Virus genome (UHGV): UHGV-0031292
Length of the DNA: 39,344 nt
From: a virus
Direction: 5' to 3' (one strand)
Both the position numbers and the translations under genes were made by a program. Of the stretch, positions 5,233 through 37,256 are shown piece after piece (within the stretch, counting starts at the first letter, position 1; the number at the start of each line of letters is the position of its first letter). The notes below the pieces were generated by a model that saw nothing but the letters and a program-made list of their open reading frames with translations, ran no database searches and had not been told where the DNA came from.

Positions 5233-5309
5233 TTACCGTTTAGGTAATAATTATGCGTATTTGGTTTGATGTCAATAGATATGAGTTAAAAAAATTACCC
5301 ATTAGGTAA
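5233..5309. promoter_or_regulatory. OL-like region: two exact copies of the TTACC-N5-GGTAA palindrome (5233-5247, 5295-5309) before the leftward early operon
   Basis: TTACCGTTTAGGTAA and TTACCCATTAGGTAA, 62 bp apart, between the repressor terminator and the first early-left gene. Confidence 0.65.
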
Positions 5310-5323
5310 TAGTATAGGCAATA

Positions 5324-5346
5324 AAAAAGCCACCAGAAGGCGGCTT
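5324..5346 (-). terminator. Rho-independent terminator downstream of the repressor gene (GCCGCC-TTCT-GGTGGC plus T6)
   Basis: Hairpin followed by TTTTTTATT on the minus strand, directly after the repressor stop. Confidence 0.55.
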
Positions 5347-5366
5347 ACTTGCTGAAAACTATAGTT

Positions 5367-5951
5367 TTATTGTTTGCTTTTTTCGTTCTGGTTGATGACA
5401 AATTCAATGTAACTTTCGATCTTTGCTTTCTCGGTTTCGGGTAACAATGCGTAGCGCGAGCGGTCATAGTTGATGGTCGCAGGGTCGTGCGGGTGAATCA
5501 GTAATTCATAGCCGTGACGCCCGAATGCGGATGCAACATTCTCCAGGGTGGAAATGGAAACGCTGACCTCATTGTTTAACAGGCGGCTGATTGTCACCTG
5601 GGCGACGCCGGATGCGCGGTGAAGTTTTCCCTGTGTTGAAAGGTCGCGGCTTTCGCTCATCCAGCGTTCCAGGTTGTGAGCCGCCAGTTGACCAATGTCG
5701 CTTGGTCCGACAGGCTGAAAACCTTCCTGAGAAAGCGAGCGATCGATATCAAGCCAGTTACGGGGTTTATTGGCGGCAGCTTCAATTTTTCGTGCAACCT
5801 GGTCGCCGATAACCTTCTTGCCAAGAGCCCAGCGGTTTACCAGATTTGCCTGAGTTCCAAGTTTTTCAGCCATCCGCGTCTGAACACCATTGAATTCACG
5901 GTCGATCAAGTCGTTGAGATTTTGCCTGCGGACGTCCTGGATACTTTTCAT
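5367..5951 (-). CDS. Prophage repressor (CI-like) with two tandem HTH_XRE domains and no recognisable S24 autocleavage domain
   Basis: 194-aa ORF divergent from cro; two HTH segments (QTRMAEKLGTQANLVNRWALGKK... and HRASGVAQVTISRLLNNEVSVSISTLENVA). Confidence 0.65.
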   Translation of the reverse strand: MKSIQDVRRQNLNDLIDREFNGVQTRMAEKLGTQANLVNRWALGKKVIGDQVARKIEAAANKPRNWLDIDRSLSQEGFQPVGPSDIGQLAAHNLERWMSESRDLSTQGKLHRASGVAQVTISRLLNNEVSVSISTLENVASAFGRHGYELLIHPHDPATINYDRSRYALLPETEKAKIESYIEFVINQNEKSKQ

Positions 5952-6006
5952 TTTCTGGAAAATCGCCTCATATCTGAATCAGAAGATGATTCAATTTAAA
6001 GCAATA

Positions 6007-6068
6007 TTACCCAACAGGTAAATGCACCTCATGGGTAACTATCCTTGATTTTTGTTACCTTATAGGTG
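6007..6068. promoter_or_regulatory. OR-like region: three tandem palindrome copies (6007-6021 exact; 6024-6038 and 6054-6068 variant) between repressor and cro
   Basis: TTACCCAACAGGTAA, GCACCTCATGGGTAA, TTACCTTATAGGTGA in the 154-bp divergent intergenic region. Confidence 0.7.
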
Positions 6069-6105
6069 AATATTTATTATCTGAAATAAATATCAGGCAA
6101 TAGCT

Positions 6106-6336
6106 ATGAGCGATAACGGACATTTCGATTTCAAAAAGCACTGGCTTGCACTTACTCCGGATGAGCGTGAAGCCTTCGCACAGGAAGCCGGAACGACGAG
6201 TCACTATATCCAGACTCACTTAACAGGTAAGCGCAAAATGCCAGGTAAAGTATTGATGAATGGGCTTTTTAAAGCCTGTAAAACAAGACAATGGCTGCGC
6301 TCAAAAGCAGAACTGGCATACTTCTTCTACTCATGA
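6106..6336 (+). CDS. Cro-like small DNA-binding regulator
   Basis: 76-aa ORF divergent from the repressor, just downstream of the OR-like sites; HTH-like segment EAGTTSHYIQTHLTGKR. Confidence 0.5.
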   Translation: MSDNGHFDFKKHWLALTPDEREAFAQEAGTTSHYIQTHLTGKRKMPGKVLMNGLFKACKTRQWLRSKAELAYFFYS

Positions 6337-6360
6337 TATCCATCCACAACCCTCTGTAGA

Positions 6361-6381
6361 CCGCCATCCGGCGGTCTTTTC
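6361..6381 (+). terminator. Intrinsic terminator after cro (CCGCC-ATCC-GGCGG plus TCTTTT)
   Basis: GC stem-loop followed by a short T-run 25 bp after the cro stop. Confidence 0.45.
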
Positions 6382-6391
6382 ATATCTATTC

Positions 6392-6406
6392 GTACCTCAA
6401 AGGTAA
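6392..6406. promoter_or_regulatory. Palindrome copy (variant GTACCTCAAAGGTAA) downstream of the cro terminator
   Basis: Matches xxACC-N5-GGTAA. Confidence 0.45.
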
Positions 6407-6486
6407 TAAAAAACCAAATCTGGTTGATCTTTTTTTTGTGTCAGCACAAAATAACCGTAATCCCAATACTAATAACAGGGCTTACC

Positions 6487-6687
6487 ATGGAAATCATTAC
6501 ACGTATTGATGCCGCAAAGCGCGGACTTAAACGCTACTACACCGGAAAACCATGTAAGCACGGACATGACAGTGAACGCTGGGTTTACAACGGACACTGT
6601 GTTGAGTGCACCATGGAATCAAACCGTCGCATCAGGGCAGAGATTAAGCAGATCATGATTAATTCCTCCCCACAACATTCAAGCTGA
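6487..6687 (+). CDS. Small hypothetical protein with a putative Cys/His zinc-binding motif
   Basis: Likely start MEIITRID; motif KPCKHGH...NGHCVEC. Confidence 0.45.
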   Translation: MEIITRIDAAKRGLKRYYTGKPCKHGHDSERWVYNGHCVECTMESNRRIRAEIKQIMINSSPQHSS

Positions 6688-6702
6688 TAGCGGAGATTAA
6701 TC

Positions 6703-8276: not shown

Positions 8277-8314
8277 TACCAGCGCGATAGCGCATTTTTT
8301 TACGCCTTGATAGT

Positions 8315-8390
8315 TACCTTCTGGGTAACAAAATATTCTAAACCATATTGATTTCGTGTCTTATGTGGTTTTTAATTACCTCAGGGGTAA
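8315..8390. promoter_or_regulatory. Two exact palindrome copies (8315-8329, 8376-8390) immediately upstream of the 8394 gene
   Basis: TTACCTTCTGGGTAA and TTACCTCAGGGGTAA; the second ends 4 bp before the ATG. Confidence 0.6.
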
Positions 8391-8393
8391 ATT

Positions 8394-8738: not shown

Positions 8739-8799
8739 ATCGACGATCTTTTTAGTTATCAATGTAATCAATAAGTTATGTGGATAAGCGAGGGTAAAG

Positions 8800-9974: not shown

Positions 9975-9975
9975 T

Positions 9976-10491: not shown

Positions 10492-11042
10492 TCACTATTA
10501 CCAAAGGGCGACTGCTGACAATCAAGCAGTGGCGCGAAATATACGGACCTGGTAGCAACGTTGTACTGCCAGCAGAAGAAGCGGAAGAACTGGCACGGAT
10601 TGCACTGGCATCGCTGGAAGCAGAGTCTGTAAGCCAAACTTACAACTTGCCAGAATTGATCGAAGGCATGGAAGTTTCCATTGATGTAAGCACTTGTGAT
10701 GCTGATTTAGGTAATCGCTATTTCGGCACCGTCACCGAGGCGTTAGAACTTGATACAGCCAAGAATGGTTACATCCTCCTGGTTCAGGACGCAGAGCCAA
10801 ACTTCGATGTAAATGGCAACTCTCCGAGTTGGATAAGCTGTAGTGATCAAATGCCTGAAAAGGGCCAGAACGTGCTTATTTCGGTGAATTTCGATAGCTC
10901 TCTGGTTGAACCGCTAATATGCTCCGCACGCTATACCGGAAGCACCTTTCGGCGCGGAGATGCAACGATTAAGCCGGGTAATGGTATTGAGCAAGCAACT
11001 CACTGGATGCCGCTACCAGAACCGCCGCAGGAGGTGAAGTGA
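10488..11042 (+). CDS. Hypothetical phage protein with C-terminal DUF551-like domain
   Basis: 184-aa ORF; C-terminal WISCSDQMPE...ATHWMPLPEPP. Confidence 0.5.
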   Translation: MITITKGRLLTIKQWREIYGPGSNVVLPAEEAEELARIALASLEAESVSQTYNLPELIEGMEVSIDVSTCDADLGNRYFGTVTEALELDTAKNGYILLVQDAEPNFDVNGNSPSWISCSDQMPEKGQNVLISVNFDSSLVEPLICSARYTGSTFRRGDATIKPGNGIEQATHWMPLPEPPQEVK

Positions 11043-11404
11043 TGGACTATTCACAGTTAAGTGATTTTGAAATTAACGTGGCGGTATTCGAAGCCATTCA
11101 TAGCGGATCACCGGATTACAAAGAAGGTGAGAATGGCGATATGGTGTTTGTCTCATTTGAGGGAGACATTGTAAACGGAGACGCAGTTGAAGTAGAAGTT
11201 GAGCGCGGATCCTTTAACCCATGCGCAAACCCAGCAGACGCATGGCCGATTATTGCTGATAACGGAGTTAACATTCTCTGGGACTGGAACGAAAGCGGTT
11301 TGCACGGTGCTTCTGCCAACCCTATTTGGGAGCATGAGCATGAAAATGTTCTCCGAGCCGCCATGATTGTATTTCTCATGATGCAGGAAAATCAGAATGG
11401 CTAA
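11042..11404 (+). CDS. Hypothetical protein
   Basis: ATG after GGAGGTGAAGTG; acidic 120-aa product. Confidence 0.45.
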   Translation: MDYSQLSDFEINVAVFEAIHSGSPDYKEGENGDMVFVSFEGDIVNGDAVEVEVERGSFNPCANPADAWPIIADNGVNILWDWNESGLHGASANPIWEHEHENVLRAAMIVFLMMQENQNG

Positions 11405-11735
11405 ATCAGCAGCAGAGCGCAAAGCTGCTCAGAGAGCCAGACAAGCTGCATCTGGTGTGCGTAAGCTGGAAATTGTGCTTGATGCTCAGGAAATTGAAAT
11501 GCTTGAGCGTAACTGTGCCGCGCGTCGCCCCGGGCGTGCGCCTTACGAATTTGGTGAGTATATAGCGTTACTGATCCGCCAGGATGATGCACGCGTGCGC
11601 GGGCGTATAAAATCGATCAGCAGAAAATGTTGCGGTAAGTGCGGCGAGAGAGTTCCAGTTAATTCATGCCCGTGTAATGGTGACTCGCAATGCTGGGTGA
11701 CTAAAGGCTGGCATGAAACGAAATTAATAGTGTGA
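11397..11735 (+). CDS. Small basic protein with C-terminal Cys-rich zinc-ribbon-like motif; candidate late-gene regulator (speculative)
   Basis: 112-aa ORF, last early-right gene before terminator and packaging genes; motif CCGKCGERVPVNSCPCNG. Confidence 0.4.
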   Translation: MAKSAAERKAAQRARQAASGVRKLEIVLDAQEIEMLERNCAARRPGRAPYEFGEYIALLIRQDDARVRGRIKSISRKCCGKCGERVPVNSCPCNGDSQCWVTKGWHETKLIV

Positions 11736-11743: not shown

Positions 11744-11784
11744 GAGTAGATTATGCATGATGAATTTGATGGGTTTTGAATACT

Positions 11785-11810
11785 GCCGCCAACTATGGCG
11801 GCTTTATTTT
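11785..11810 (+). terminator. Intrinsic terminator between early-right and packaging genes (GCCGCC-AACTAT-GGCGGC plus TTTATTTT)
   Basis: Perfect 6-bp GC stem and T-rich tail; lies inside the N-terminal extension of the track ORF 11776-12450. Confidence 0.55.
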
Positions 11811-11853
11811 GCATGGTACTATTACCACAACGGTAACTATTACCACGGTGGTT

Positions 11854-12450
11854 ATGATGCCTGCTGAACCTAAAACCTATAAACGCAAATCAACGCAATT
11901 TAAGCCACTAACAGCAATGCAGGAGGCTTATTGCCAGTCATACATCAAAACGCCTGAAAACCAGACTCAGGCAGCGATTAACGCAGGATTCTCCCCAAAT
12001 ACAGCGGCAGTTAAAGCCAGTGTCATGATGCGCGATGAACGCATTCAAAAACGGATTGCCGAGTTGATGGAGGAGCGCAACAAACGAATGCGCGTCAGTG
12101 CTGATTACGTTCTCATGCGCCTGGTGGAGATCGACCAGATGGACGTGATCGACATCCTCAACGACGATGGGAGCCTTAAACCAATCCGTGAGTGGCCGAA
12201 AATCTGGCGCACTACGCTTAGTGGCTTTGATCTGTCATCGACCATCATGAACATGAACGAGGATTCGATAGAGACAATCCTCAAAAAAATTAAATGGCCT
12301 GACAAGGTGAAGAACCTTGAGCTGATTGGTAAGCATGTTGATGTCAACGCGTTCAAAGAACGTCTGGATGTTAATGTGAATGTGACAATTGCTGATCGCA
12401 TAGCAGCAGCCAGGAAGCGACTCAAAGAACGTCAGGATGGTAATCAGTGA
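11854..12450 (+). CDS. Terminase small subunit
   Basis: Directly upstream of and overlapping the large terminase; start moved to MMPAEPK because the longer ORF includes a terminator hairpin. Confidence 0.6.
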   Translation: MMPAEPKTYKRKSTQFKPLTAMQEAYCQSYIKTPENQTQAAINAGFSPNTAAVKASVMMRDERIQKRIAELMEERNKRMRVSADYVLMRLVEIDQMDVIDILNDDGSLKPIREWPKIWRTTLSGFDLSSTIMNMNEDSIETILKKIKWPDKVKNLELIGKHVDVNAFKERLDVNVNVTIADRIAAARKRLKERQDGNQ

Positions 12451-13922
12451 CAGATACAGCGTTATCTCCTGAAGAGCAGTTGATCGAGGATATTGCAGGG
12501 TTCACTCACGATCCGCTTGGCTATGCCCTCTATGCGTTCCCGTGGGGGGAAGAGGGGACTGAACTGGCACATGCCACCGGCCCACGTCAGTGGCAGGCTG
12601 ATGCGTTCCGAGAGATACGTGATCACCTGCAGAATCCAGAGACGCGCTATCAGCCGCTTATGCTGGCACGCGCTTCTGGTCACGGTATTGGTAAATCCGC
12701 ATTCATCTCAATGCTGATCAACTGGGGCATGTCCACTTGCGAGGATTGTAAGGTCGTGGTGACCGCCAACACCGACAACCAGCTACGAACGAAGACCTGG
12801 CCGGAAATTATCAAGTGGTCGAACCTTGCTATCACGAAAGACTGGTTTACCTGTACCGCTACCGCGATGTACAGCAATGATCCTGGACACGACAAGCGGT
12901 GGCGAGCTGACGCAATACCCTGGTCTGAGCACAACACTGAGGCATTCGCCGGACTACACAACGAGCGCAAACGCATCATCGTGGTATTCGATGAAGCGTC
13001 GAACATTGCGGATCTGGTGTGGGAAGTTGCCGAGGGTGCGCTAACGGACGAAGACACTGAGATTATCTGGGTGGCGTTCGGAAACCCGACGCGTAATACC
13101 GGACGTTTCCGCGAATGTTTCCGCAAATATAAACACCGCTGGAAAACTGCGCAGATTGACAGCCGGACGGTGGAAGGCACCAACAAACAGCAGTTGCAGA
13201 AATGGGTTGATGACTACGGGGAAGACAGCGACTTCGTTAAAATCCGTGTGCGCGGCATATTCCCTGATGCATCTGAATTGCAGTTTATCCCTACCGGTCT
13301 TACTGACGAGGCAATGAAACGGGTGGTAACTGCTGCGCAGGTGGCACATGCTCCGGTGATAATCGGCGTTGACCCTGCATACTCCGGTGTTGATGACGCG
13401 GTGATATACCTGCGGCAGGGGCTGCACAGTAAGGTGCTGTGGACCGGCAACAAGACCACTGACGATCTGATTATGGCAAAGCGTATCGCTGACTTTGAAG
13501 ACCAGTATCAGGCTGACGCGGTGTTCATCGACTTCGGTTACGGTACCGGGCTGAAGTCAATCGGTGACGGTTGGGGGCGCACATGGCAACTTGTTCCGTT
13601 CGGTGGCGCGTCTACTGACCCGCAGATGCTCAACAAGCGTGGGGAGATGTTCAACTCATGCAAGACATGGCTGAGGCTGGGCGGCATGCTGGATGACCAG
13701 GAAACAGCGGACGACCTGTCGGCGGCAGAGTACAAAGTTCGAGTGGACGGTAAAATCGTTATCGAACCGAAGGAAGATATCAAGGAGCGGCTTGGGCGTT
13801 CGCCGGGTAAAGGCGATGCGCTACTGCTGACGTTTGCTTTCCCGGTGTCAAAGCGCCTGCGACTTCCCGGGCAGCAGAACCAGCAAGGCAAGGCGCTTAC
13901 CGAGTACGATCCATATGCTTAG
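12447..13922 (+). CDS. Terminase large subunit (ATPase/nuclease)
   Basis: 491-aa ORF with P-loop-like SGHGIGKS and DEAS (Walker B-like) motifs; GTG start overlapping upstream stop. Confidence 0.8.
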   Translation: MTDTALSPEEQLIEDIAGFTHDPLGYALYAFPWGEEGTELAHATGPRQWQADAFREIRDHLQNPETRYQPLMLARASGHGIGKSAFISMLINWGMSTCEDCKVVVTANTDNQLRTKTWPEIIKWSNLAITKDWFTCTATAMYSNDPGHDKRWRADAIPWSEHNTEAFAGLHNERKRIIVVFDEASNIADLVWEVAEGALTDEDTEIIWVAFGNPTRNTGRFRECFRKYKHRWKTAQIDSRTVEGTNKQQLQKWVDDYGEDSDFVKIRVRGIFPDASELQFIPTGLTDEAMKRVVTAAQVAHAPVIIGVDPAYSGVDDAVIYLRQGLHSKVLWTGNKTTDDLIMAKRIADFEDQYQADAVFIDFGYGTGLKSIGDGWGRTWQLVPFGGASTDPQMLNKRGEMFNSCKTWLRLGGMLDDQETADDLSAAEYKVRVDGKIVIEPKEDIKERLGRSPGKGDALLLTFAFPVSKRLRLPGQQNQQGKALTEYDPYA

Positions 13923-14737
13923 TCTTTATTTTTATCCTCGAAACCTGATAATCCAGATAGAACACCAAAGTTATTAAAAACGTTTGGCTTACCAGATTTT
14001 AATCCGGATAAGTTGTGTTGCTCCAAAAAGTTGCTAATTGTTTGGCCGTTGCCAAGTGCAAGGCTTTTTATTTGAGATTTTTCAGGGTATTTGAGTTTGT
14101 ATTCGTCGAAATCATTTTGGAGGGTCTTATATGCCTCATTCATTCTTCCAAGAGTTTCCGATATCTCTTTTAATGAATGATTTAGAGCTGCTAACTGAGC
14201 ACTGGCGGATCTCAATTCGTCATCTTTAGCTTTCAACTCGGCAGTCAATTCCCCCATACTATTCTTTGATCGAATAATCTCTTCTTTCATCTCTTGGATG
14301 TCTTTTTCCGCGCCAGTCTTAACTTTGTCGTATGTAACATCTTTTTTAGCCAATAACCTCTGCAGTCTTGTTTCACGCTGGATTTTTCTTGCCTTCAGGT
14401 GATTTTCGATTGAGTCATTATTATCAAGAGGCTTTGCTTGCCATACGTTAATGATATTGTTTACCCATGGTAATAGGCAGCAGATAGCAATTACAGATAA
14501 GCATGGATAAAACATAACAGTTTTCCATGTGCTGTTATCTGAGATATATGAAATTTTATCTATTATGTTTGATTTGCTAAAAAATAGATAAAGAATTGAT
14601 TTCCAGTTGAAGGCGCACCAGGACATAACAAAAGCACCAAGCACAGGGTTTTTGGCTCTATTCACGGCAGTATTGGCAGTAGATAAAAACAGCTCTTTAA
14701 ACGATTCAAACATGCTAATTACCTTGAAGTTTTTCAT
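13919..14737 (-). CDS. AT-rich moron: membrane protein (2 predicted TM helices) with long C-terminal coiled coil; candidate superinfection-exclusion or abortive-infection factor
   Basis: Opposite strand to flanking late genes; low GC; hydrophobic N-terminus; heptad-rich C-terminus; start taken as MKNFKV (internal ATG). Confidence 0.55.
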   Translation of the reverse strand: MKNFKVISMFESFKELFLSTANTAVNRAKNPVLGAFVMSWCAFNWKSILYLFFSKSNIIDKISYISDNSTWKTVMFYPCLSVIAICCLLPWVNNIINVWQAKPLDNNDSIENHLKARKIQRETRLQRLLAKKDVTYDKVKTGAEKDIQEMKEEIIRSKNSMGELTAELKAKDDELRSASAQLAALNHSLKEISETLGRMNEAYKTLQNDFDEYKLKYPEKSQIKSLALGNGQTISNFLEQHNLSGLKSGKPNVFNNFGVLSGLSGFEDKNKD

Positions 14738-14741
14738 GATT

Positions 14742-14756
14742 ATACCTTTAAGGTAA
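14742..14756. promoter_or_regulatory. Palindrome copy (variant ATACCTTTAAGGTAA) a few bp upstream of the moron start, overlapping a TATAAT on the minus strand
   Basis: Matches xxACC-N5-GGTAA; minus strand reads ...TTACCTTAAAGGTATAATCATG. Confidence 0.45.
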
Positions 14757-14772
14757 TTTGCGGTCATCAAGC

Positions 14773-14959: not shown

Positions 14960-15036
14960 CTGGCGTGGCATGCAGGATTCGAACCTGCGACCAACCGCTT
15001 AGAAGGCGGTTGCTCTGTCCGACTGAGCTAATGCCA
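14960..15036 (-). tRNA. tRNA-Arg, anticodon UCU (decodes AGA)
   Basis: Minus-strand 77-nt sequence GTGGCATTAGCTCAGTCGGACAGAGCAACCGCCTTCTAAGCGGTTGGTCGCAGGTTCGAATCCTGCATGCCACGCCA folds as a cloverleaf (7-bp acceptor stem, CTTCTAA anticodon loop, GGTTCGAATCC T-arm, encoded CCA). Confidence 0.85.
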
Positions 15037-15359
15037 CAACGCTGAGAGCACTTAGCCTGTTAAGGCGCCACACTTTGTCGCGGCTCCATAAATGCTCTCA
15101 TCGTTGTACCCTCGTCTCTTCCGAGGCGTCACACCGAATCGCCGGGATGGTGAATCCCCGTGCGCGGAATAAAACCGCTCGACTTGCACATTCCGGCTAC
15201 CTGGTTCGTTTGCTCGAGCAAGGGAGGGTGCCCCTTAAACGTATCCAGACCGCTATCGGCGCATGTGCCATACGCCGTACTGCTCAAAATAAAAGCTCAC
15301 TCCTCCTGTTCAATTTAACGACAAGCCAGTCAGGTTAATAACCGGAATGAACTCTTTGC

Positions 15360-15374
15360 TTACCTGAAAGGTAA
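15360..15374. promoter_or_regulatory. Exact palindrome copy TTACCTGAAAGGTAA upstream of the portal operon; start of a conserved promoter-like module
   Basis: Identical 15-mer at 34324-34338; CATATGTGGTT follows about 45 bp downstream. Confidence 0.6.
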
Positions 15375-15464
15375 TAATTCGTGCGTTAAATGTCAACTAT
15401 CTACGATAAATAAATCATATGTGGTTAAATTGGTAATAATTTAATTGCGTACGGAGTCATTGAT

Positions 15465-24642: not shown

Positions 24643-27155
24643 TGCCAGTCGTACCAACAGTATCCGGACGTCAGGTTGAGAGCCGTGGAGTTCAGTCAGC
24701 AGGCTTGCAGACGTTTTCTCAGCCAGGTATTGGTGATGCTTTTGTTCGGGCAGGGGCAGAGGCAATTGATGTTTTTGGTCAGGCAAAGCAGCGTGCCAAT
24801 ATCGCTCTGGCTCAGGAGGCATCTCTTAACCTCAGTCAGATAAGCAGCGATCTGCTGAATAACCCTGAAACAGGTTTGCTTAACCTGAAAGGGAAAAATG
24901 CTATTGGAAAAGGTCAGGAGTATACGCAGCAGTTTGATGCCCAGGTCGAGCAACTGGCTATGTCGCTGCCGGATGAACAGGCTCGTAATGCTTTCATGCA
25001 GCAGGCGCAGCAGCAGCGCATTCAGTTCACTACACAGGCCGGGCGGCACGAGATAGGGCAAATAAATGCATACGAAGAAGGCCAGTTTCAGGCTACGCTG
25101 CTGAACAATGGTAAAAATGCCGCAGCATTGTATGGCGACAACGCCGCATACGTATTGGCTAATAAGCAAACTTTCCAGCAAATTGAGGATTACGGCATTG
25201 CGCATGGCTGGAGCGACGAGCAAATCCAGGCCAAGAAAGTCGAGTTTAAAGAGAAGGTTGCTGATGCTGCATTGTCACAGTGGTCGGCAAACAATGCGAC
25301 CGCATTCATCCAAAGTAATGGCGAATTAAGTGATACTGCTTCTGGAGCTCGCCGTTCTGTAGCAGATAGTGGCTCTTCCGAGCGTGTCCGTGGCATACGC
25401 AACAATAACCCCGGAAATCTCGAATACAGCAAAACTAATCCGTGGGTAGGCCAGACCGGTGATGATGGTCGATTTGCTAAATTCGAAACACCTGAACACG
25501 GGATTCGTGCATTAGGGCGGAACCTGATGTCGTATCAGAGGCAGGGTATTGATACCGTCAGCGAGATAATTAATCGCTGGGCACCGCCTACTGATAAAAA
25601 TGACACTATGTCGTATATCAAAGCAGTGTGCGAACAACTTGGCGTTTCTGCTGATGAGCCTCTCGATGCATCTAATCCTGATACCCTGAAGGCGCTTTGT
25701 GCAGCCATTATCCATCATGAGAACGGTAGCCAGCCATACAGTGATCAGCAGTTAACTGCTGGTGTCAGTGCAGCACTTGGTTTATCAACAATTCCAACCA
25801 ACACCAAACGCTATACCGGTAATGCAGCATTCGATGCGGCATCTCCTGAGGCGCAGGCAAGTTTTATGCGACAGGCGGATCAACTGCGTCGGCAGCAGCA
25901 GGCTGAATATAAAACGATGATTGACAGCCAGGTTCGCGATGCGACGGCTGCGTATATGCGTGGCGTTGAATTTCCTAACCCACCTGGTGAGGCTGATTTT
26001 ATTGCAGCTTATGGCGTCAGAGAAGGAAACCTGCGATATACCGAGTTCAGAAATACGCAGATCGCCGGACAGTATATAGGCTCTTTCCGCAACATGCCGA
26101 CAAGCAGCATTACAGCATATGTTGAGCAATTACGCCCGGATACTGGTGAGACAGGGGAGGGGTATGCGGCACGCGCAGCTCTTTATGACAACGTTGTTTC
26201 GGCTGCAAATCAGGTGATAAAGCAGCGGCAATCGGATCCTGTGCAGTTCTCTCTTGCCGCCGGACAGGCAAAGCCTATCGACATGAGCAATAAGGATAAC
26301 TTTGGACAGAGCGTTGCCTTGCGTGCCGCTCAGGTCAGTGACCTTGCTAAGTCATATGGCACGCCACTGACGTTCTTTTCCAAAGACGAGGCCAATCAGA
26401 TCGGTGTTTTCTTTCGTGATGCGCCAGTTTCCCAACAGGCAGCATATCTCGATACCATCAGGCAGAGCACTGGTGGTGGGCAGGTGTATATGTCAGCACT
26501 ACAGCAGATCAGTGCCAACGCTCCATCTGCTGCCGTTGCCGGGATACTGATGGATAAGCCTGGTGGTATTTTGGCAGAAAAAAACTGGTTTAATCCTGAT
26601 GTTTCCGTGTCTCCTGAAACCGCAGCGCAGACAATTCTGGCTGGTGCGGCGGCTCGTAAGGGTACTGATGACGCGAAAGGTATTCCGATGCCTAAAGATG
26701 CTGATCTTCGCCTTGAGTTTTCTGACATGGTGAAGGATGCATTTGCTGGTGATGCTCAGGGGGCATCAATGGCATACGAGATCGCAAAGGACTATTACGC
26801 TGGTGTGATGGCGAAAAAAGGCGTGGTGTCAGGCGAAATTGACAATGATATCTGGAAACAGGCTGTTAACGTAGCTACAGGTGGCGTGCATGACTATAAC
26901 GGAATGGGGAATGTTCTTTTGCCGTGGGGAATGTCTGCAGAGCAATTCGATAAGCAGGTTAATCAGGTTTGGAATGAACAAGTTGTTGGCACAGGGATAA
27001 AAACACCGCCTGGTCAGTATGGTTTGCAAAGTTACGGCGATAGTCAGTACCTGGTGAAACTTGGTACTGGTTATCTGCTGAAAGATGATGGTTCTCCCGT
27101 TGTTCTTGATCTGACTCAGAAGCGTCAGAGATTCTCCGGAGATATTCCGCAATGA
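24642..27155 (+). CDS. Large internal virion/ejection protein with putative cell-wall-binding or hydrolase-like domain
   Basis: Start MPVVPTV after GGAGGA (the track's 24567 start is an upstream extension); conserved segment IRNNNPGNLEYSKTNPWVGQ...RFAKFETPEHGIRALGRNL. Confidence 0.55.
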   Translation: MPVVPTVSGRQVESRGVQSAGLQTFSQPGIGDAFVRAGAEAIDVFGQAKQRANIALAQEASLNLSQISSDLLNNPETGLLNLKGKNAIGKGQEYTQQFDAQVEQLAMSLPDEQARNAFMQQAQQQRIQFTTQAGRHEIGQINAYEEGQFQATLLNNGKNAAALYGDNAAYVLANKQTFQQIEDYGIAHGWSDEQIQAKKVEFKEKVADAALSQWSANNATAFIQSNGELSDTASGARRSVADSGSSERVRGIRNNNPGNLEYSKTNPWVGQTGDDGRFAKFETPEHGIRALGRNLMSYQRQGIDTVSEIINRWAPPTDKNDTMSYIKAVCEQLGVSADEPLDASNPDTLKALCAAIIHHENGSQPYSDQQLTAGVSAALGLSTIPTNTKRYTGNAAFDAASPEAQASFMRQADQLRRQQQAEYKTMIDSQVRDATAAYMRGVEFPNPPGEADFIAAYGVREGNLRYTEFRNTQIAGQYIGSFRNMPTSSITAYVEQLRPDTGETGEGYAARAALYDNVVSAANQVIKQRQSDPVQFSLAAGQAKPIDMSNKDNFGQSVALRAAQVSDLAKSYGTPLTFFSKDEANQIGVFFRDAPVSQQAAYLDTIRQSTGGGQVYMSALQQISANAPSAAVAGILMDKPGGILAEKNWFNPDVSVSPETAAQTILAGAAARKGTDDAKGIPMPKDADLRLEFSDMVKDAFAGDAQGASMAYEIAKDYYAGVMAKKGVVSGEIDNDIWKQAVNVATGGVHDYNGMGNVLLPWGMSAEQFDKQVNQVWNEQVVGTGIKTPPGQYGLQSYGDSQYLVKLGTGYLLKDDGSPVVLDLTQKRQRFSGDIPQ

Positions 27156-28954: not shown

Positions 28955-28959
28955 ATTAA

Positions 28960-31434: not shown

Positions 31435-31443
31435 GGAAGTGTT

Positions 31444-31617: not shown

Positions 31618-31629
31618 ATAGGTGACTAC

Positions 31630-32214: not shown

Positions 32215-32739
32215 TTACCAAAACTTGTACCACGGGGATTTATCCTTCAATGGACAATCCTTCCATCGTGTGGCCAACCATTCATATTCTTTAAAATATG
32301 TGTTTATGTTTTCTTTTTCTCTAATGGCTTGTATAAGAGGTAGCGCAATCTGATAGTTATTTACAACGGAGCTGTAAAATACTTCCTTAATCATGGTCTC
32401 ATCATAAGTTTTCCGCTTCACGCTCACAGCCATGCGTTCGTAGAAACCTAGACAGTAAATTATTTCTCTCTTCTCTGTCTTTTCTTCATCCGTAAGATCA
32501 GCCTGCCCATTGCTTGGATACATATAAGAGCGGAATGATTTGTTCGATTCGTGAATGCGGCGCATAGTAGATAGGCCTTTCTTATAATCTACATCAAACC
32601 TGCTTTCACCAAGGAATACTGAAGTGTGTACTTTTCTCGCTGTATTTACATTATAAATAATAGTAGCGATAGCTATGAACAAGCCAAGCGAAACCGCGAC
32701 TGCACTTACGATTTGAGCCACAGCCATGGCAAATTGCAT
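32215..32739 (-). CDS. Membrane-anchored protein of unknown function (N-terminal TM helix plus about 140-aa soluble domain), AT-rich accessory gene
   Basis: 179-aa ORF (GTG at 32754 or ATG MQFAMAV); single N-terminal hydrophobic helix; low GC. Confidence 0.5.
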   Translation of the reverse strand: MQFAMAVAQIVSAVAVSLGLFIAIATIIYNVNTARKVHTSVFLGESRFDVDYKKGLSTMRRIHESNKSFRSYMYPSNGQADLTDEEKTEKREIIYCLGFYERMAVSVKRKTYDETMIKEVFYSSVVNNYQIALPLIQAIREKENINTYFKEYEWLATRWKDCPLKDKSPWYKFW

Positions 32740-32772
32740 TTCTTCACTTAACACAAACTGTCTCCAGACATG

Positions 32773-32795: not shown

Positions 32796-32963
32796 CATTA
32801 AACTATCCGAATGTTAAACGCCTTCGTACTCGTCAAATTTTCTCATGTGGGCTCCTCCTGTATCGGTGCCTAATCGCTATGGATCACCCGTGAGGTAATA
32901 GTAAGCTATTCACCTGCAATCTGTACAGAATTATTTAAAGGCACATCCCTGTGCCGCCGCCCG

Positions 32964-33689
32964 TCAGAAGAACCCTGCTTTGTCGTTGATGTACTCCGCG
33001 TGCGTCTGGATATCACGCAGGCATTTGCTCACACCGACGATGTAGCAGAACATGGTGGTCAGCTCCGCCGCCGCGCCCGATACGTCGTGCCCGTCGTCCT
33101 GTAACTGGTTCAGCAGATTCATCAGCAGTGAGTTCTCCGTCAGGCCGAGAACACCAGACGGAGAATGAATCAGACTGCGGTAGCCGGGCTTCAGTGGGGC
33201 GCTGTAGGTTTTGTTCTCTATCTTCATTGCCTGCATCACTGCTGATGCTGTGGCGTTGGCTACCTGGTCGGCAACCATCTTTATGCGTTCTTCCTGCGGG
33301 AGCGAGTTTTTAATGTAACTTCCGGTGCGGCGGATCTGAGGAAGAACCTCACCTGTAACCCATTTACGAAAGCGGTAGGGGATAGTGCCTGGTGTCACTG
33401 CGTCGCGGCAGCGGAGGATCAGTGTGTAGAGGCCTGACTCGGAGATGATGTTGATCTCTTTTACTCGGCTGTCAAAAATCGCACGATGTTCATGCCCTAT
33501 GTTGAACATAGACCTTTCATCATCATCCAGTTTTTCAAGTGCTTGGGTGACGTTTTGGATACGCAGCGCACTACAAACGTCTTGGGCTACAAACCATGGT
33601 TGGCCATCGATAATGATGGAACGGATAGGGTTAACAGATTCAAATTTGAAGATGGCAGTTTGAGCATTAGCCATGGTGGTTATCTCCAC
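32964..33689 (-). CDS. Bro-N (KilA-N-like) domain antirepressor
   Basis: 241-aa ORF with N-terminal Bro-N-like segment (FESVNPIRSIIIDGQPWFVAQDVCSALRIQN); C-terminal region paralogous to the 33990 gene. Confidence 0.7.
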   Translation of the reverse strand: MEITTMANAQTAIFKFESVNPIRSIIIDGQPWFVAQDVCSALRIQNVTQALEKLDDDERSMFNIGHEHRAIFDSRVKEINIISESGLYTLILRCRDAVTPGTIPYRFRKWVTGEVLPQIRRTGSYIKNSLPQEERIKMVADQVANATASAVMQAMKIENKTYSAPLKPGYRSLIHSPSGVLGLTENSLLMNLLNQLQDDGHDVSGAAAELTTMFCYIVGVSKCLRDIQTHAEYINDKAGFF

Positions 33690-33692
33690 TTA

Positions 33693-33706
33693 GTGATTTT
33701 AATCAC
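33693..33706. promoter_or_regulatory. 14-bp perfect palindrome GTGATTTTAATCAC immediately upstream of the antirepressor start
   Basis: Starts 4 bp upstream of the ATG. Confidence 0.4.
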
Positions 33707-33827
33707 CACCGCAACGCCAATTACTGGTGGTGAACTGGACAAGGTTGGCGTACCGGCCTAAGTGGTACCGGCGTCCTTTCGGACCCCTGCCCAGCCCACC
33801 ATAATTCGGATATAGCTGTGCTTAACG

Positions 33828-33852
33828 CATAAAAAAACCACGTCTGGCGTGG
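33828..33852 (-). terminator. Intrinsic terminator on minus strand (CCACG-CCAGA-CGTGG plus T7) between the two antirepressor-like genes
   Basis: Plus strand reads AAAAAAACCACGTCTGGCGTGG. Confidence 0.55.
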
Positions 33853-33943
33853 TATGCGCCACTTAGTAACTCGGGACGCCAATCCCGGCACTGGATTTTG
33901 CCAGTGCCCGATTACTATGGCACAAGAGGAGTGCGATGTAAAT

Positions 33944-33958
33944 TTACCGCAAAGGTAA
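33944..33958. promoter_or_regulatory. Exact palindrome copy TTACCGCAAAGGTAA in the antirepressor leader
   Basis: Perfect TTACC-N5-GGTAA. Confidence 0.5.
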
Positions 33959-33989
33959 ATATAAGCACTCCAGTTGGTAATTGTAAACC

Positions 33990-34247
33990 TTATCTGGTTT
34001 GTTTTCGTAATTGTTCGACACAATAGTCGAGATGTGTTTGCAGATCCTGCATAGTCATCTGTGAGCTGGTGACGTAGTTAATCAGTGCAGTCAGTTCGGC
34101 AAGTGGGCCATCGACATTAAATCCATCCTTATCGAGATCCCGGAGTAATTTCATCAAGTGCGATCCCTCCACCAGTGACCTGACGCCTCCCGGCGTGTGA
34201 ATCCTTTCGGTAAATCCGTCTTCCAGTGGATAGTGATACCGCTGCAT
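33990..34247 (-). CDS. Small antirepressor-like protein (about 85 aa), paralogous to the C-terminal domain of the Bro-N antirepressor; putatively LexA-controlled
   Basis: First ATG (MQRYHY) preceded by GGAG; shared motif H(T/S)PxGV..L.E.S.LM.LL..L..DG..V.G...ELT.....V...........LQTH..Y with 32964-33689; LexA box about 22 bp upstream. Confidence 0.55.
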   Translation of the reverse strand: MQRYHYPLEDGFTERIHTPGGVRSLVEGSHLMKLLRDLDKDGFNVDGPLAELTALINYVTSSQMTMQDLQTHLDYCVEQLRKQTR

Positions 34248-34268
34248 CTTATCTTCTCCATGCAATAA

Positions 34269-34284
34269 CTGTATAAATATACAG
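34269..34284. promoter_or_regulatory. LexA (SOS) box CTGTATAAATATACAG (20-mer AACTGTATAAATATACAGTA)
   Basis: Near-perfect match to the CTGT-N8-ACAG consensus, about 22 bp upstream of the antirepressor-like gene start. Confidence 0.7.
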
Positions 34285-34323
34285 TATCAAATAATTTGTT
34301 TGCTATCCAGCACGTTTTGCAAA

Positions 34324-34338
34324 TTACCTGAAAGGTAA
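34324..34338. promoter_or_regulatory. Exact palindrome copy TTACCTGAAAGGTAA upstream of the tailspike; start of a promoter-like module
   Basis: Identical to 15360-15374; CCATATATGGTT follows at 34367-34380. Confidence 0.6.
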
Positions 34339-34442
34339 TATCTGTTCGTATTTATGGGTTGCTTATCCATATATGGTTTTTTAGGTAATAAAATAACCGG
34401 ATATGCGGCGCAACGGGTGCTGCGACTATCTGGAGATTTAAC

Positions 34443-36890
34443 ATGACGGTATCAACCGAAGTTGACCACAACGAATACACCGGTAACGGTGTTACAACGG
34501 CATTCCCTTATACCTTCAGGATTTTCCAGAAATCTGATTTAGTAGTGCAGGTTGTTGACCTGAACGAGAACATCACAGAGCTGATTCTTGATACTGATTA
34601 CATAGTCACTGGTGCTGGAGGGTATAACGGCGGCAATGTAATTCTGTCGAAGGCGTTGGCTAACGGTTATCAGATTTCTATATCAAGAGAGCTACCGGTT
34701 ACGCAGGATACCGATCTGCGCAACCAGGGTAAGTTCTTCGCTGAGGTGCATGAAGACGCATTCGATAAACTGACGATGCTGATACAGCAGGTTAGAAGTT
34801 GGTTTAGGTTGGCTCTGCGTAAACCATCATTTATTGCTAATTATTATGATGCCTTGAACAATTATATTCGCAATCTTCGTGACCCGTCACGGCCTCAAGA
34901 TGCAGCCACAAAAAATTATGTTGATAACTTATCAGTAACGAATTCAAACAGGGCTATACGAGTACCTGAACCATTTATATCATCGCTTCCTGATATTGAT
35001 GGTAGAAAAAACAAATCATTAAGCTTTGATAACGCAGGGGAACCATTGCTTTTAGATCCTGCTCAAAGCGGATTATGGGGTTATGTTCTGATTGATTCGT
35101 TTCAACTTGGAGCGAATATAACGACTAGATTCCAGGCACTACACTGGTCTTTACCTGATGGTAATGGTGAGTATTATCGTTGGGATGGAGAACTCCCAAA
35201 AATAGTTATGCCCGGTTCAACGCCAGATAGTTCTGGGGGCATTGGTCCTGGGGCTTGGTTGAGCGTTGGTGATGCTACACTACGATCCATGCTTTCATCA
35301 TGGAAAGGTTATTCATTTATAGATAATGGGAATCTTTCTTTATACAAAAAGAAAGGCTTGTTCGGTGACGCAGGGGAAGTTGAAACCTCATATGATGTTG
35401 TACAGCATTCTGATGGTTTCTGGTATAAATACACCGGAAGTCTGCCTTTTACTTATGGGGCAGCACCTGATTCCTTATGGGTAAATGTTGGTAATCTTAC
35501 CGGTTTTCCTGAGAATTCCCCGGAAAACTTTGGAGCTATTCCAGGGGTTGAAACATCTGATTGCCTACCCGCAATTAAATTGGCTATTTTAACTGGAACT
35601 CTACGACTAACCCCTGGAGAGACATATTATGTTTCTGATGAGGTTATCATCCCGTCTAACCTTATAATGTTTACAAACTCTGCAACAATTAAAGCGATGC
35701 CATCAGTAACATGGACGGGTAAAGCTGTCGTTAGGGCTAGCAAAAAGCCAGTAGGAACATCCCCGGACCTTTCATTGCCTGAACAACAAGTTCGTGGAAT
35801 TAGGCACATTGGTACATTAAATATTGATGCTAACAATGTTGCGCCTTACGGTTTTTATGGTTTTGGTGTAGTTGCAGAATCTGTCACAGACATTATATAT
35901 GCTTATAATGCCACAGAACTTGGAATTGTACTTCTTGGGAGTTGGTATCATAAAGTAAATCAATATATGGCAATTGATTGTGCAAGAGGTGTCTCTTTGG
36001 CGCATGGTTTCTCCGGTGAAACCGGAGATGTAAACGTTAATGGTGTTGAATTTGGTGTCGTCGCTGCGTATAACACATCAAAATCTTTGTCCTATGGGTA
36101 TGATCCGTATTCATCATCTTTAACCCCACAGCTCATAGGTGCCGGTGTCACTCTCGGGCAAGGATTGGCATCAAGAATAGGAACATTAATAGCTGAAACC
36201 ACAGCAGGCGCTGGTTTAGCTACTGTTAACGCTGTTAGTTGGTCTGTTGGTTCTATGTACTTTGAAAAATGCAGTGAAGCGCTTGAAGATAGTGCAGAGC
36301 CTGATATTGCGATATTATCAACTACAGGAAATGTCGAGGACCACGTATTTGACGTCGGTAATATCCATTTTGGCATAGGGACTGGTATACTGCAAAGAGC
36401 AACGGCAAGTGAGTTTCTCAACATCCAATCCATATACCGTATAGACAATAAAAAAACATGGCATAGTTCCTCAAAGGCGTCTTCAAGTTTTGTAAATTTC
36501 GTAAACTATTACGTTCTCAACCCTTATGATTACGTTAAACCGGTTCAACTGACTAATGACGTAGGCAAGGATGTTATAAGTTCATCGGCAATGCTTAACT
36601 TTAAGGATTTTTCAAATACGCCAAATATCCCATTTTTTTATACTGGCGGTGATCTTGATATTAATATAAGCATATCAGATGGTTCGATTATTGGGCTTGG
36701 TATTCAGGTTCAGTCTGAAGATGGAATTGAATATATAACATGCACATCATCACCGTTTTCAGCAAAGCTAACAAAAAGGAGAAATGCTTATTCTGTTTAT
36801 TGGGTATCAATGGGAACTCCAGTTCAAGAAGCTACTGGCATGGGGGCGATTATAATAACAAAACAAAAAACTTCTCAATGGCTTCGTTAG
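34443..36890 (+). CDS. Tailspike protein (conserved N-terminal virion-attachment region, AT-rich variable C-terminal receptor-binding domain)
   Basis: 815-aa ORF at the end of the virion module; composition shifts to AT-rich from about 34.8 kb. Confidence 0.7.
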   Translation: MTVSTEVDHNEYTGNGVTTAFPYTFRIFQKSDLVVQVVDLNENITELILDTDYIVTGAGGYNGGNVILSKALANGYQISISRELPVTQDTDLRNQGKFFAEVHEDAFDKLTMLIQQVRSWFRLALRKPSFIANYYDALNNYIRNLRDPSRPQDAATKNYVDNLSVTNSNRAIRVPEPFISSLPDIDGRKNKSLSFDNAGEPLLLDPAQSGLWGYVLIDSFQLGANITTRFQALHWSLPDGNGEYYRWDGELPKIVMPGSTPDSSGGIGPGAWLSVGDATLRSMLSSWKGYSFIDNGNLSLYKKKGLFGDAGEVETSYDVVQHSDGFWYKYTGSLPFTYGAAPDSLWVNVGNLTGFPENSPENFGAIPGVETSDCLPAIKLAILTGTLRLTPGETYYVSDEVIIPSNLIMFTNSATIKAMPSVTWTGKAVVRASKKPVGTSPDLSLPEQQVRGIRHIGTLNIDANNVAPYGFYGFGVVAESVTDIIYAYNATELGIVLLGSWYHKVNQYMAIDCARGVSLAHGFSGETGDVNVNGVEFGVVAAYNTSKSLSYGYDPYSSSLTPQLIGAGVTLGQGLASRIGTLIAETTAGAGLATVNAVSWSVGSMYFEKCSEALEDSAEPDIAILSTTGNVEDHVFDVGNIHFGIGTGILQRATASEFLNIQSIYRIDNKKTWHSSSKASSSFVNFVNYYVLNPYDYVKPVQLTNDVGKDVISSSAMLNFKDFSNTPNIPFFYTGGDLDINISISDGSIIGLGIQVQSEDGIEYITCTSSPFSAKLTKRRNAYSVYWVSMGTPVQEATGMGAIIITKQKTSQWLR

Positions 36891-36893
36891 ATA

Positions 36894-37085
36894 ATGGCTT
36901 TATATAATGAAGCTATAATTATTTACGTTATAAGACATGATGTTTTGCATGGTAACCAATATTGGTTGTCTGGAGATGTATGGGGGCTAGTCTACAATAT
37001 AATCAGTCCTGATAATGCAAATTACAGTTACATGTATAAAAGGCCTAGCGGTAAAATAACATTATTCAACACATTTACACCATAA
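36894..37085 (+). CDS. Small AT-rich hypothetical ORF after the tailspike (doubtful)
   Basis: 63-aa ORF, no clear ribosome-binding site; followed by terminator. Confidence 0.2.
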   Translation: MALYNEAIIIYVIRHDVLHGNQYWLSGDVWGLVYNIISPDNANYSYMYKRPSGKITLFNTFTP

Positions 37086-37090
37086 AGTAC

Positions 37091-37128
37091 AAAGCGCCAT
37101 CTATATTATTGTAGATGGTGCTTTTAAT
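37091..37128 (+). terminator. Intrinsic terminator after the tailspike region (GCGCCATCTA...TAGATGGTGC plus T-run)
   Basis: Inverted repeat followed by TTTTAATTTT. Confidence 0.5.
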
Positions 37129-37241
37129 TTTATCTGTTTTTTTCGATATCAATTATTATATTTCAATTAAATAAATTACATAGCACATAAGTAACTTATA
37201 GCTTATAAAAATACGTTAGTTTTTAGAATGATAAGATTTAT

Positions 37242-37256
37242 CACCTTTAGGGTAAT
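37242..37256. promoter_or_regulatory. Palindrome copy (variant TCACCTTTAGGGTAA) upstream of the lysis cassette; promoter-like module with CCATATATGGTTT at 37288-37300
   Basis: Matches xxACC-N5-GGTAA; downstream element as in the portal and tailspike copies. Confidence 0.5.

Follow-up and report, generated by a model that had tools for sequence, protein, structure and literature searches.

The palindrome TTACC-N5-GGTAA as a probable lysogeny repressor operator at early and late operons of a phiV10-like Uetakevirus

The window analyzed here is the whole 39,344-nucleotide stretch of UHGV virus genome UHGV-0031292, a phiV10-like member of the genus Uetakevirus. It shares about 97% identity with phiV10, PAS61, phiv142-3 and ZX5, and its structural genes are 75-81% identical to those of Enterobacter phage Tyrion and Salmonella phage epsilon15. 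The immunity region comprises the rep gene (5367..5951, minus strand) and a divergent cro-like gene (6106..6336, plus strand). The product of rep is a lysogeny repressor of 194 residues with two helix-turn-helix (HTH)-like domains, an N-terminal YdaS/Cro-like domain and a central HTH_3 domain (Pfam HTH_3, 1.2e-9, plus the YdaS-like HTH). It is a homologue of the Rep protein of phage SPC32H (PDB 5D50, E 3.5e-42), for which structures exist both alone and with the antirepressor Ant (PDB 5D4Z, 5D50). The cro-like HTH gene is the first of the rightward operon, is homologous to phiV10 p41 and matches PHROG 35, 'transcriptional repressor', at 5.6e-13. The subject of this report is the palindrome TTACC-N5-GGTAA, copies of which lie around these two genes and at early and late operons across the window.

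We enumerated all palindromes with 5-nt half-sites and spacers of 0 to 10 nt. In this unbiased enumeration TTACC-N5-GGTAA ranked first in the window, with nine exact copies against 0.02 expected from dinucleotide-preserving shuffles of the 39.3-kb sequence. The exact copies start at positions 5233, 5295, 6007, 8314, 8376, 11822, 15360, 33944 and 34324. Allowing up to one mismatch yields 16 sites, where 0.64 are expected, the additional ones starting at 211, 6055, 6392, 11840, 14742, 32884 and 37241. The catalogue reaches 17 sites once a copy with two mismatches at 6024 (GCACC...GGTAA) is counted, which is credible solely through its middle position in the right operator cluster and its exact orthologue in epsilon15. 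Regulatory gaps hold every site. When site centers were compared with a mechanical set of open reading frames (ORFs), deliberately generous so that the intergenic share is 7.6% of the window, 11 of 16 fell in intergenic DNA (P ~1e-9) and the remaining five within over-extended TTG/GTG ORFs or spurious ORFs. For terS, for instance, the TTG 'start' falls within a terminator hairpin, and epsilon15 uses an ATG located 3' of both operators. A preliminary description of this DNA had reported about 14 copies, eight of them exact and six variants, all placed in intergenic DNA and with far fewer than one exact copy expected by chance. Its estimate and its placement of the copies hold, and so does the palindrome itself, with a slight under-count. 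Its site list was essentially right, apart from three starts that were off by one (8315 for 8314, 6054 for 6055 and 37242 for 37241), and was incomplete, since it missed the exact copy at 11822 and its partner at 11840 before terS, as well as the copy at 32884 before a DUF4760 gene. We regard the palindrome as real and functional.

The position of the sites relative to promoters was examined by scoring sigma-70-like cores around every site against the window background, in which the 95th and 99th percentiles are 7.3 and 9.9. Eight sites overlap promoters at or above the 98th percentile of this background. On the leftward side of rep, the exact operator OL1 (5233..5247) abuts the -10 and covers the +1 of the leftward early promoter PL (TTGACA-17-AATTAT, minus strand, 5275..5247, score 11.8, above the 99th percentile). 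OL2 (5295..5309), also exact, is located 62 bp from OL1 center to center, and a second leftward core is predicted at 5295 (score 10.1). Between rep and the cro-like gene, the OR cluster (6007..6069) harbors an exact copy (6007-6021), the copy with two mismatches (6024-6038) and a copy with one mismatch (6055-6069). The rightward promoter PR (TTGTTA-17-TATTAT, 6052-6080, score 11.2) overlaps the 6055 site, and a candidate leftward rep promoter (ATGAGG-17-TAATAT) abuts the 6007 site. Epsilon15 has three OR sites at orthologous positions. The three copies between repressor and cro and the two before the leftward early operon had been read as OR and OL, and their overlap with PR and PL agrees with this.

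Further sites are associated with the early right, middle and integrase promoters. The operator at 6392..6406 (one mismatch) begins 15 bp after the terminator of the cro-like gene (6358-6377), upstream of the promoter of p42 and the replication genes (TTGATC-17-CAAAAT, 6424-6452, score 9.9), on which its center falls at about -60. The exact operator at 8314..8328 fills the spacer of a middle promoter (TTGATA-16-CAAAAT, 8307-8334, score 10.6) and lies 66 bp before the DUF1064/RuvC-like gene, as in all genomes. Its exact partner at 8376..8390 is 62 bp further and 4 bp before the DUF1064 start codon, and a second DUF1064 promoter (TTGATT-17-TTTAAT, score 9.1) ends at the first base of this site. 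An operator pair (11822..11854) precedes terS, with an exact copy at 11822-11836 and a copy with one mismatch at 11840-11854, 18 bp apart, following a terminator at 11785-11802. In the phiV10 record (region 41-110) terS starts at a TTG within the preceding terminator hairpin, upstream of both operators. The ATG chosen in epsilon15, past the second operator, is more plausible; in the window (region 11776-11857) the start is probably the ATG at 11854 or 11857. Upstream of int, by 43 bp, lies a copy (211..225) whose single mismatch, GGTAT, creates the -10 TATACT of a predicted promoter (GTGACG-15-TATACT, score 7.3) with the operator centered at -17. The strongest predicted promoter of the window (ATGACC-17-TATAAT, minus strand, 14767..14739, score 12.1) drives a leftward accessory gene and is covered over its -10 and spacer by an operator with one mismatch (14742..14756). 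Finally, a copy with one mismatch (32884..32898) is found upstream of a leftward DUF4760 gene, next to a weak predicted promoter alone (TGTACA-18-TACTAT), whose -10 ends at the operator edge. The extended site ATTACC...GGTAAT can complete a -10 with either edge, as xxxxAT|TACC or GG|TAATxx. The earlier proposal that the right half-site runs into a -10 is therefore correct in part: it applies to TATACT at int and to TATAAT at 14742 on the minus strand, but at PL, 8376 and 33944 it is the left edge that carries the -10, and no convincing overlapping -35/-10 is present on the rightward late sides.

Several operators are paired, with spacings of 62 bp at OL and at 8314/8376, 17 and 31 bp within OR, and 18 bp before terS. 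At OL, 62 bp is found in the window, phiV10, PAS61, Tyrion and BUCT554; the Klebsiella phage has one base pair more (63 bp). The 62-bp spacing of the 8314/8376 pair is likewise conserved across lineages, and corresponds to about six helical turns. Such pairs suggest cooperative binding, or a small loop, by a tetrameric repressor.

Three operators precede late operons. The exact copy at 15360..15374 lies 91 bp upstream of gp3 and the portal operon, and another exact copy (34324..34338) is located between the leftward ant gene and the rightward tailspike gene; the epsilon15 orthologues of both are annotated as repressor sites. The third, with one mismatch (TCACC), lies at 37241..37255, about 105 bp upstream of the lysis cassette. 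A leftward promoter (TTGACA-17-TACCTT, 15360-15400, score 11.9) places its -10 within the 15360 operator; the TGTCAA of this promoter is kept in nearly all genomes. The promoter faces the gene for tRNA-Arg(tct) (14961-15037, minus strand), about 320 nt downstream, which may thus be under Rep control.

We compared the sites across the genus. Ten Uetakevirus genomes were examined, from phages infecting Escherichia, Salmonella, Enterobacter and Klebsiella. In every one of them TTACC-N5-GGTAA ranks above all other palindromes and has 8-11 exact copies; SPC32H carries the same set, with 10 exact copies. Where both are present (8-10 genomes), the distance between a site and its orthologous gene is nearly always fixed. 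Thus OL1 is orthologous in all genomes, 20 bp from p39; OL has two or three sites and OR three; terS is preceded by an operator pair; and another pair lies 66 and 4 bp before the slot that follows the replication genes, whether this slot holds a DUF1064 or a RuvC-like gene. The gp3 site is located exactly 91 bp upstream in every genome aligned to gp3, and an operator lies 77-86 bp from ant in all genomes. The int site is found 43 bp upstream, always as GGTAT, in nearly all genomes, the exception of SPNIS2 reflecting a truncated int match. The lysis site is positioned 105-107 bp 5' of the holin-like gene in eight of ten genomes, with TCACC as left half in all genomes having the site except epsilon15 (TTACC); it was not found within one mismatch in PAS61 or the Klebsiella phage. 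The sites at 14742, 32884, 33944 and 6392 are lineage-specific in comparison with epsilon15. The first is confined to the window among the genomes compared, and the 33944 operator is present only in genomes with a Bro gene. At 6392 the right half-site is kept in all lineages, and the left half is degenerate in epsilon15 and BUCT554. Conservation at orthologous positions, proposed earlier as a check on the motif, is thus observed across the genus, and would reflect purifying selection on the sites.

The closest precedent is found in epsilon15 itself, for which GenBank record AY150271.2 annotates seven lysogeny-related sites as 'protein_bind: repressor'. These have the sequence ATTACC-N5-GGTAAT, as in the window, and lie at orthologous positions: before terS, gp3/portal, the tailspike gene and the RuvC-like gene of the RuvC/DUF1064 slot, with three on the side of the leftward operon of the repressor. 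Our scan of epsilon15, allowing at most one mismatch, retrieved 15 sites. The extra eight (30-44, 11654-11668, 24704-24718, 26882-26896, 33341-33402 and 35969-35983) comprise three at OR, those at int and lysis, the second members of the terS and RuvC-slot pairs, and one at 11654 inside the structural-gene region that is probably fortuitous. At terS, the first site of the pair (12-27) is annotated and the second (30-44) was found by the scan. Kropinski et al. are said to have predicted repressor-binding sites in epsilon15 in 2007. The paper on ZX5 holds no operator data, and a literature search on the sequence string returned nothing relevant.

At the portal, tailspike and lysis operons the operator is followed downstream by a second conserved block, which reads CCATATATGG or tCATATGTGG, followed by 9 nt and then TAATAA or TATGAT. 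At the tailspike promoter (34367..34394, plus strand), CCATATATGG is followed by the -10 TAAAAT / TAATAA, at a distance from the Rep operator that is invariant in six lineages even though the spacer is 47% identical. The lysis promoter (37287..37311, plus strand) contains CCATATATGG-N9-TATGAT, again a conserved block at a fixed operator distance. The epsilon15 record labels this lysis copy an 'RNaseIII' site. At the portal-operon promoter (15415..15442, plus strand) the block is tCATATGTGGTTAAATTGGTAATAATTT, whose core CATATGTGGTTAAATTGGTAATAATTTAA is identical in eight of ten genomes and differs at one or two positions in BUCT554 and the Klebsiella phage. The gaps from the operator to 'CATAT' at the three operons are 41, 32 and 29 nt long, and these lengths are invariant across the six lineages while the gap sequence is only 47-69% identical. 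In eight genomes, 15 of 21 CCATATATGG-like elements are no more than 65 bp away from a Rep site, against an expectation of about 4%, and their offsets from the Rep site are quantized at 19.5, 40.5, 43.5 and 52.5-53.5 bp. The general form, CC(A/T)6GG, also occurs in the PL spacer, where it is clear in Tyrion and degenerate in the window, and just upstream of the -35 of the replication-gene promoter (6424-6452), where a related element (6414-6423) separates this promoter from the 6392 operator. The degenerate copies of the window lie at about 5258-5267, 6414-6423, 8360-8370 and 33988-33999.

The late promoters themselves are unusual. Their best -10 hexamers, TAAATT at 15426, TAAAAT at 34389 and TATGAT at 37306, have no -35, and with these -10s the operator center falls at about -70 or -71 at all three operons. 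Rightward cores over the operators score 4.2 at terS, 3.7 at portal, 6.4 at tailspike and 6.8 at lysis, none of them convincing. We considered TTACCT of the palindrome as a -35, and GGTAAT(A/T) as a late -10, and rejected both, as the rightward late cores score weakly. Because a good -10 is combined with no -35 and with a conserved palindrome over the -35 region, the late promoters look activator-dependent. The motif had previously been placed at late promoters. This is supported by the fixed-distance coupling, but the operator does not overlap the late promoter and lies some 70 bp upstream of it as a separate element, so that direct repression there is inferred.

Several lines of evidence point to Rep as the protein that reads the palindrome. 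Rep identity falls to 43% between lineages sharing the motif, and is also about 43% between the window and SPC32H, and the NLVNRW segment of the N-terminal HTH, in the recognition helix, is invariant across those lineages. A later paper that summarizes the SPC32H work (PMC9638917) describes binding of palindromic DNA by a Rep tetramer in which the DNA-binding pairs come from different dimers. An independent link is provided by Pseudomonas phage PseuP_224, a lambda-like siphovirus, whose cI has an N-terminal domain about 39% identical to that of Rep (helix SANYISRC) and a different C-terminal domain. Four TTACC-N4-GGTAA sites, with a spacer one base shorter, surround this cI, two on each side (10906-10945 and 11768-11820); none is expected, and none occurs elsewhere in that genome. 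Since the PseuP_224 cI is flanked by such sites, the Rep-type N-terminal HTH would go with TTACC/GGTAA half-sites, and since these sites are confined to cI, their dispersal belongs to Uetakevirus genomes rather than to the protein family. No clear palindrome was seen in Moraxella phage Mcat9, which has a weak homologue of the Rep N-terminal domain. The window displays the features of a Uetakevirus Rep operator set, namely the palindrome, OL and OR around a rep homologue, orthologous dispersed copies, and Ant with a LexA box. We therefore hold it highly probable, on comparative sequence grounds, that the palindromes are binding sites of the lysogeny repressor Rep, of the epsilon15/SPC32H Rep family. 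One protein acting at OR, OL and the dispersed copies, most simply the tandem-HTH repressor as the preliminary description had it, is the best explanation of the conserved orthologous copies.

A number of observations weigh against this assignment. Conservation is higher in the Cro-like protein than in Rep, and an invariant motif could be explained equally well by the former. Since the recognition helix and the motif are the same in all members of the genus, co-variation is uninformative within it, and 80 loci in IMG/VR with identical portals included no heteroimmune variant: those with a Rep match all carry the same Rep (98-100% identity), and 43 of the 80 gave no Rep match, mostly ending before the rep position. 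No strong sigma-70 core lies over the terS pair or the 6392 site, and at portal, tailspike and lysis the operator is not over the predicted core promoter; the mechanism of late-gene repression is not established but inferred. The repressor-site annotation of epsilon15 is itself a prediction. Finally, identity at orthologous sites in six lineages is 0.99 in the half-sites, 0.55 in the N5 spacer and 0.58 in the flanks, a difference that is partly circular, as the sites were chosen by motif match. More telling is the presence of a site at one and the same coordinate in nearly every lineage, within surroundings that drift.

Alternative readers of the dispersed copies were considered in this light. 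The Cro-like protein might act as a lytic-phase global regulator at these copies, with Rep restricted to OR and OL. It is 76-84% identical in most genus members (58% in the Klebsiella phage), its HTH, AGTTSHYIQ-HLT, is invariant in the genus, and these values fit an invariant motif better than a Rep that is 43% identical; its match to the 'transcriptional repressor' family PHROG 35 also fits such a role. However, the dispersed and the OR/OL copies are indistinguishable in sequence, so that the reader of one set reads the other, and the Rep-type N-terminal domain is independently tied to TTACC/GGTAA in PseuP_224. In lambda and P22, moreover, Cro and repressor share operators. Shared use is likely and exclusive use is not: the Cro-like protein probably binds the Rep sites as well, and we regard a division of labor in which it alone reads the dispersed copies as very unlikely. 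The different global regulator that had been offered as an alternative thus has a plausible candidate, which would probably share the sites and not replace Rep. A transcription factor conserved in Enterobacteriaceae and recruited by the phage is barely conceivable. Although phages of Escherichia, Salmonella, Enterobacter and Klebsiella all share an identical motif, the clustering of OL and OR around rep, the invariant Rep helix and the motif at the PseuP_224 cI all indicate a phage protein, and we know of no enterobacterial regulator with this consensus. The sites could also be bound by Rep within transcription units, as roadblocks to elongation similar to the stoperators of mycobacteriophages. 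The 6392 site and the 11822/11840 pair directly follow terminators and have no strong overlapping promoter, and the 8376 site is downstream of the 8307 promoter. But stoperators are asymmetric, oriented with transcription and mostly away from promoters, and the window sites differ on the first two counts and appear to differ on the third: 16-17 palindromic sites all lie in promoter-bearing gaps, and eight overlap strong cores. We consider roadblocks unlikely, although the 6392, 8376 and 11822/11840 sites could act in this way, and the stoperator-type label given to these sites at the outset fails, as they are palindromic, free of orientation (the -10 being on either side) and mostly overlap or adjoin promoters.

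The late operons raise a distinct issue within the Rep assignment. The palindromes there might regulate only the neighboring divergent or upstream promoters, namely that facing tRNA-Arg leftward of 15360, the leftward ant promoter at 34324, and, in relatives, conversion genes leftward of the lysis site; the late genes would then be off indirectly, through an activator encoded in a Rep-controlled early operon. The strong leftward promoter with its -10 within the 15360 operator, its conserved TGTCAA and the tRNA-Arg gene downstream are in keeping with this, as are the weak rightward sigma-70 cores and the conserved element without a -35 at the late promoters. In phage P1 the late genes are indeed controlled indirectly, via Lpa. 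On the other side, the distance from operator to element and -10, invariant in six lineages despite the divergent gaps, points to a functional link. The lysis-operon site is also retained in the window, which has no leftward gene there, and the predicted ant promoter would place the operator at about -58 and not over its core. Indirect control of this kind is possible, but on balance we find it doubtful. A more speculative proposal, to which we attach rather low confidence, is that Uetakeviruses run their programme without Q through a two-signal module. A second protein would read CC(A/T)6GG as an early-off/late-on switch, while tetrameric Rep would exert its veto directly at the late operons, possibly by bridging paired or distant operators. 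Candidate readers of CC(A/T)6GG are the Cro-like protein and a regulator encoded at 11397-11735. No Q-type antiterminator was found among the early-right genes of the window with Pfam and PHROGs.

The 11397-11735 gene is the last early-right gene, before terS, at the position where lambda has Q. It encodes a candidate late regulator (p55), a protein of 112 residues of a PHROG 'transcriptional regulator' family whose N-terminus (RKLEIVLDAQEIEMLER) is ribbon-helix-helix (RHH)-like and whose C-terminus is rich in Cys. The idea that this RHH and Cys-rich protein binds CC(A/T)6GG was set aside as unsupported, though it is not disproved: Pectobacterium phage ZF40 has a homologue, gp22, in the same operon position, and the 30-kb stretch of ZF40 examined has no CC(A/T)6GG in regulatory DNA.

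The Rep assignment leads to the following model. The N-terminal HTH pairs of Rep would read the two TTACC/GGTAA half-sites, and a tetramer with two DNA-reading units may explain both the pairs at 17-18 bp and the conserved 62-bp spacing. Terminators split the genome into many short transcription units, nearly each of which starts with a Rep site, so that in the lysogen one protein might silence the whole phage directly. Steric exclusion of RNA polymerase would operate at PL, PR, both DUF1064 promoters, int, the accessory gene behind the 14742 site and the isrK/C4/Bro promoter described below, because at each of these the operator overlaps a good sigma-70 core. At the late operons, repression could proceed by looping, by block of an upstream or divergent promoter, or by interference with an activator. 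At induction, Ant under LexA control would release Rep, and the Cro-like protein would probably use the same sites in lytic growth.

The ant gene (33990..34247, minus strand) encodes the antirepressor partner of Rep, a small protein with 88% identity to SPC32H Ant. Its promoter contains a LexA box, CTGTATAAATATACAG (34269..34284), that matches CTGT-N8-ACAG exactly and is kept in all ten genomes; the copy in the Klebsiella phage has one mismatch. No S24 peptidase domain was found in Rep with Pfam. The 88% identity of Ant, the perfect LexA box and the absence of S24 from Rep make it very likely that induction proceeds by LexA-controlled antirepression and not by repressor cleavage. SPC32H is reportedly induced in this same way, in work of Kim & Ryu from 2013 and of Kim et al. 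from 2016. The later summary (PMC9638917) describes disassembly of SPC32H Rep by tetrameric Ant. Next to ant, an exact operator (33944..33958) covers the +1 of a leftward promoter (TTTACA-18-TATATT, 33987..33958, score 11.9) heading a module that comprises an isrK-like Hfq-binding small RNA (33831-33907, minus strand; Rfam, 67 bits), a C4-type antisense RNA (33723-33806, minus strand; Rfam, 66 bits) and a Bro-N antirepressor-like gene (32964-33689, minus strand; Pfam Bro-N, 1e-19). A second, tandem leftward promoter (TTTACA-17-CATAGT) is predicted to start near the isrK 5' end. By its composition, this resembles the immI module of P1 and would be a second antirepression system beside Ant.

These features can be set against known regulatory designs. 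The SPC32H switch is alike in its Rep homologue, its Ant, its LexA box at ant and its palindrome set, and differs in having no isrK/C4/Bro module under a Rep operator and in its Rep, which shares only about 43% identity. Functionally, the nearest analogue is the C1 repressor of P1, with 22 operators dispersed over the genome (PMC8546580). As in the window, one primary repressor acts through many operators at separate promoters, but the P1 operators are asymmetric 17-mers and C1 is unrelated to the HTH_3/Cro-type Rep. The P1 immI operon lies under Op51, and the window likewise has a C4 RNA and an antirepressor gene headed by an operator of the primary repressor, a likeness of geometry only. Late genes of P1 are reached indirectly via Lpa, whereas the window operators lie directly upstream of late operons. 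The conserved inverted repeats (CIRs) of Streptomyces phage phiC31 are palindromes of about 17 bp to which the c repressor binds. Well over twelve copies are dispersed at transcription-unit starts, and the early promoters of that phage are not of sigma-70 type. They are alike as dispersed palindromic repressor sites, in an unrelated repressor family and host. The stoperators of Cluster A mycobacteriophages (L5, Bxb1) number 20-30, are 13-14 bp long without dyad symmetry and are oriented with transcription; mostly off promoters, they block elongation without cooperativity, so that the repressor silences globally (PMC6550527). An immunity repressor with many sites throughout the genome and global silencing is common to both, but in the window there are 16-17 palindromic sites, located at promoters and in many cases paired. 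Lambda also has three operators between divergent repressor and cro-like genes, over PR and the repressor promoter, and two at PL. In contrast, 11 of the 17 window sites, counting OR2, are outside the immunity region, Rep has no S24 domain and no Q-type antiterminator was found. PseuP_224 combines an annotated Q gene and a related cI N-terminal domain with sites only at cI, whereas those of the window are dispersed; the two phages form a natural contrast between confined and dispersed operator sets.

The core idea, a single repressor with sites at both early and late operons, has already been published for epsilon15 as a predicted annotation, and the repressor family is already structurally characterized; in kind, and for the most part in detail, the feature is thus known. 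The present analysis contributes the catalogue of 17 sites (15 in epsilon15 against seven annotated), evidence for purifying selection, the promoter geometry, the contrast with a lambda-like relative that keeps its sites at cI, and the second palindrome of the late promoters, which is the part most worth experiment. The design explains how widespread O-antigen-converting prophages stay silent and are switched on, among them phiV10 from E. coli O157:H7, the Salmonella phages epsilon15 and SPC32H, and relatives from Klebsiella and Enterobacter. Through a single small antirepressor under LexA control, nearly all transcription units can be released at once, which is useful for engineering reporter phages based on phiV10 and SPC32H. 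The operator sequence is common to all lineages, which should also help to predict superinfection immunity across genera. The system would be a Gram-negative, palindromic counterpart to the global-repressor designs of P1 and the mycobacteriophages.

Two accessory genes lie behind Rep operators. The leftward gene served by the 14742 site (13919-14770, minus strand) matches phrog_4780, has weak SMC/DndD-like coiled-coil hits and is absent from several relatives. The DUF4760 gene behind the 32884 site (32215-32754, minus strand; Pfam DUF4760, 8e-31) is likewise absent from several relatives. A defence-system identity was considered for both and dropped, as the hits are just weak and of coiled-coil type. 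Unlike typical lysogenic-conversion morons, both genes would be silent in the lysogen.

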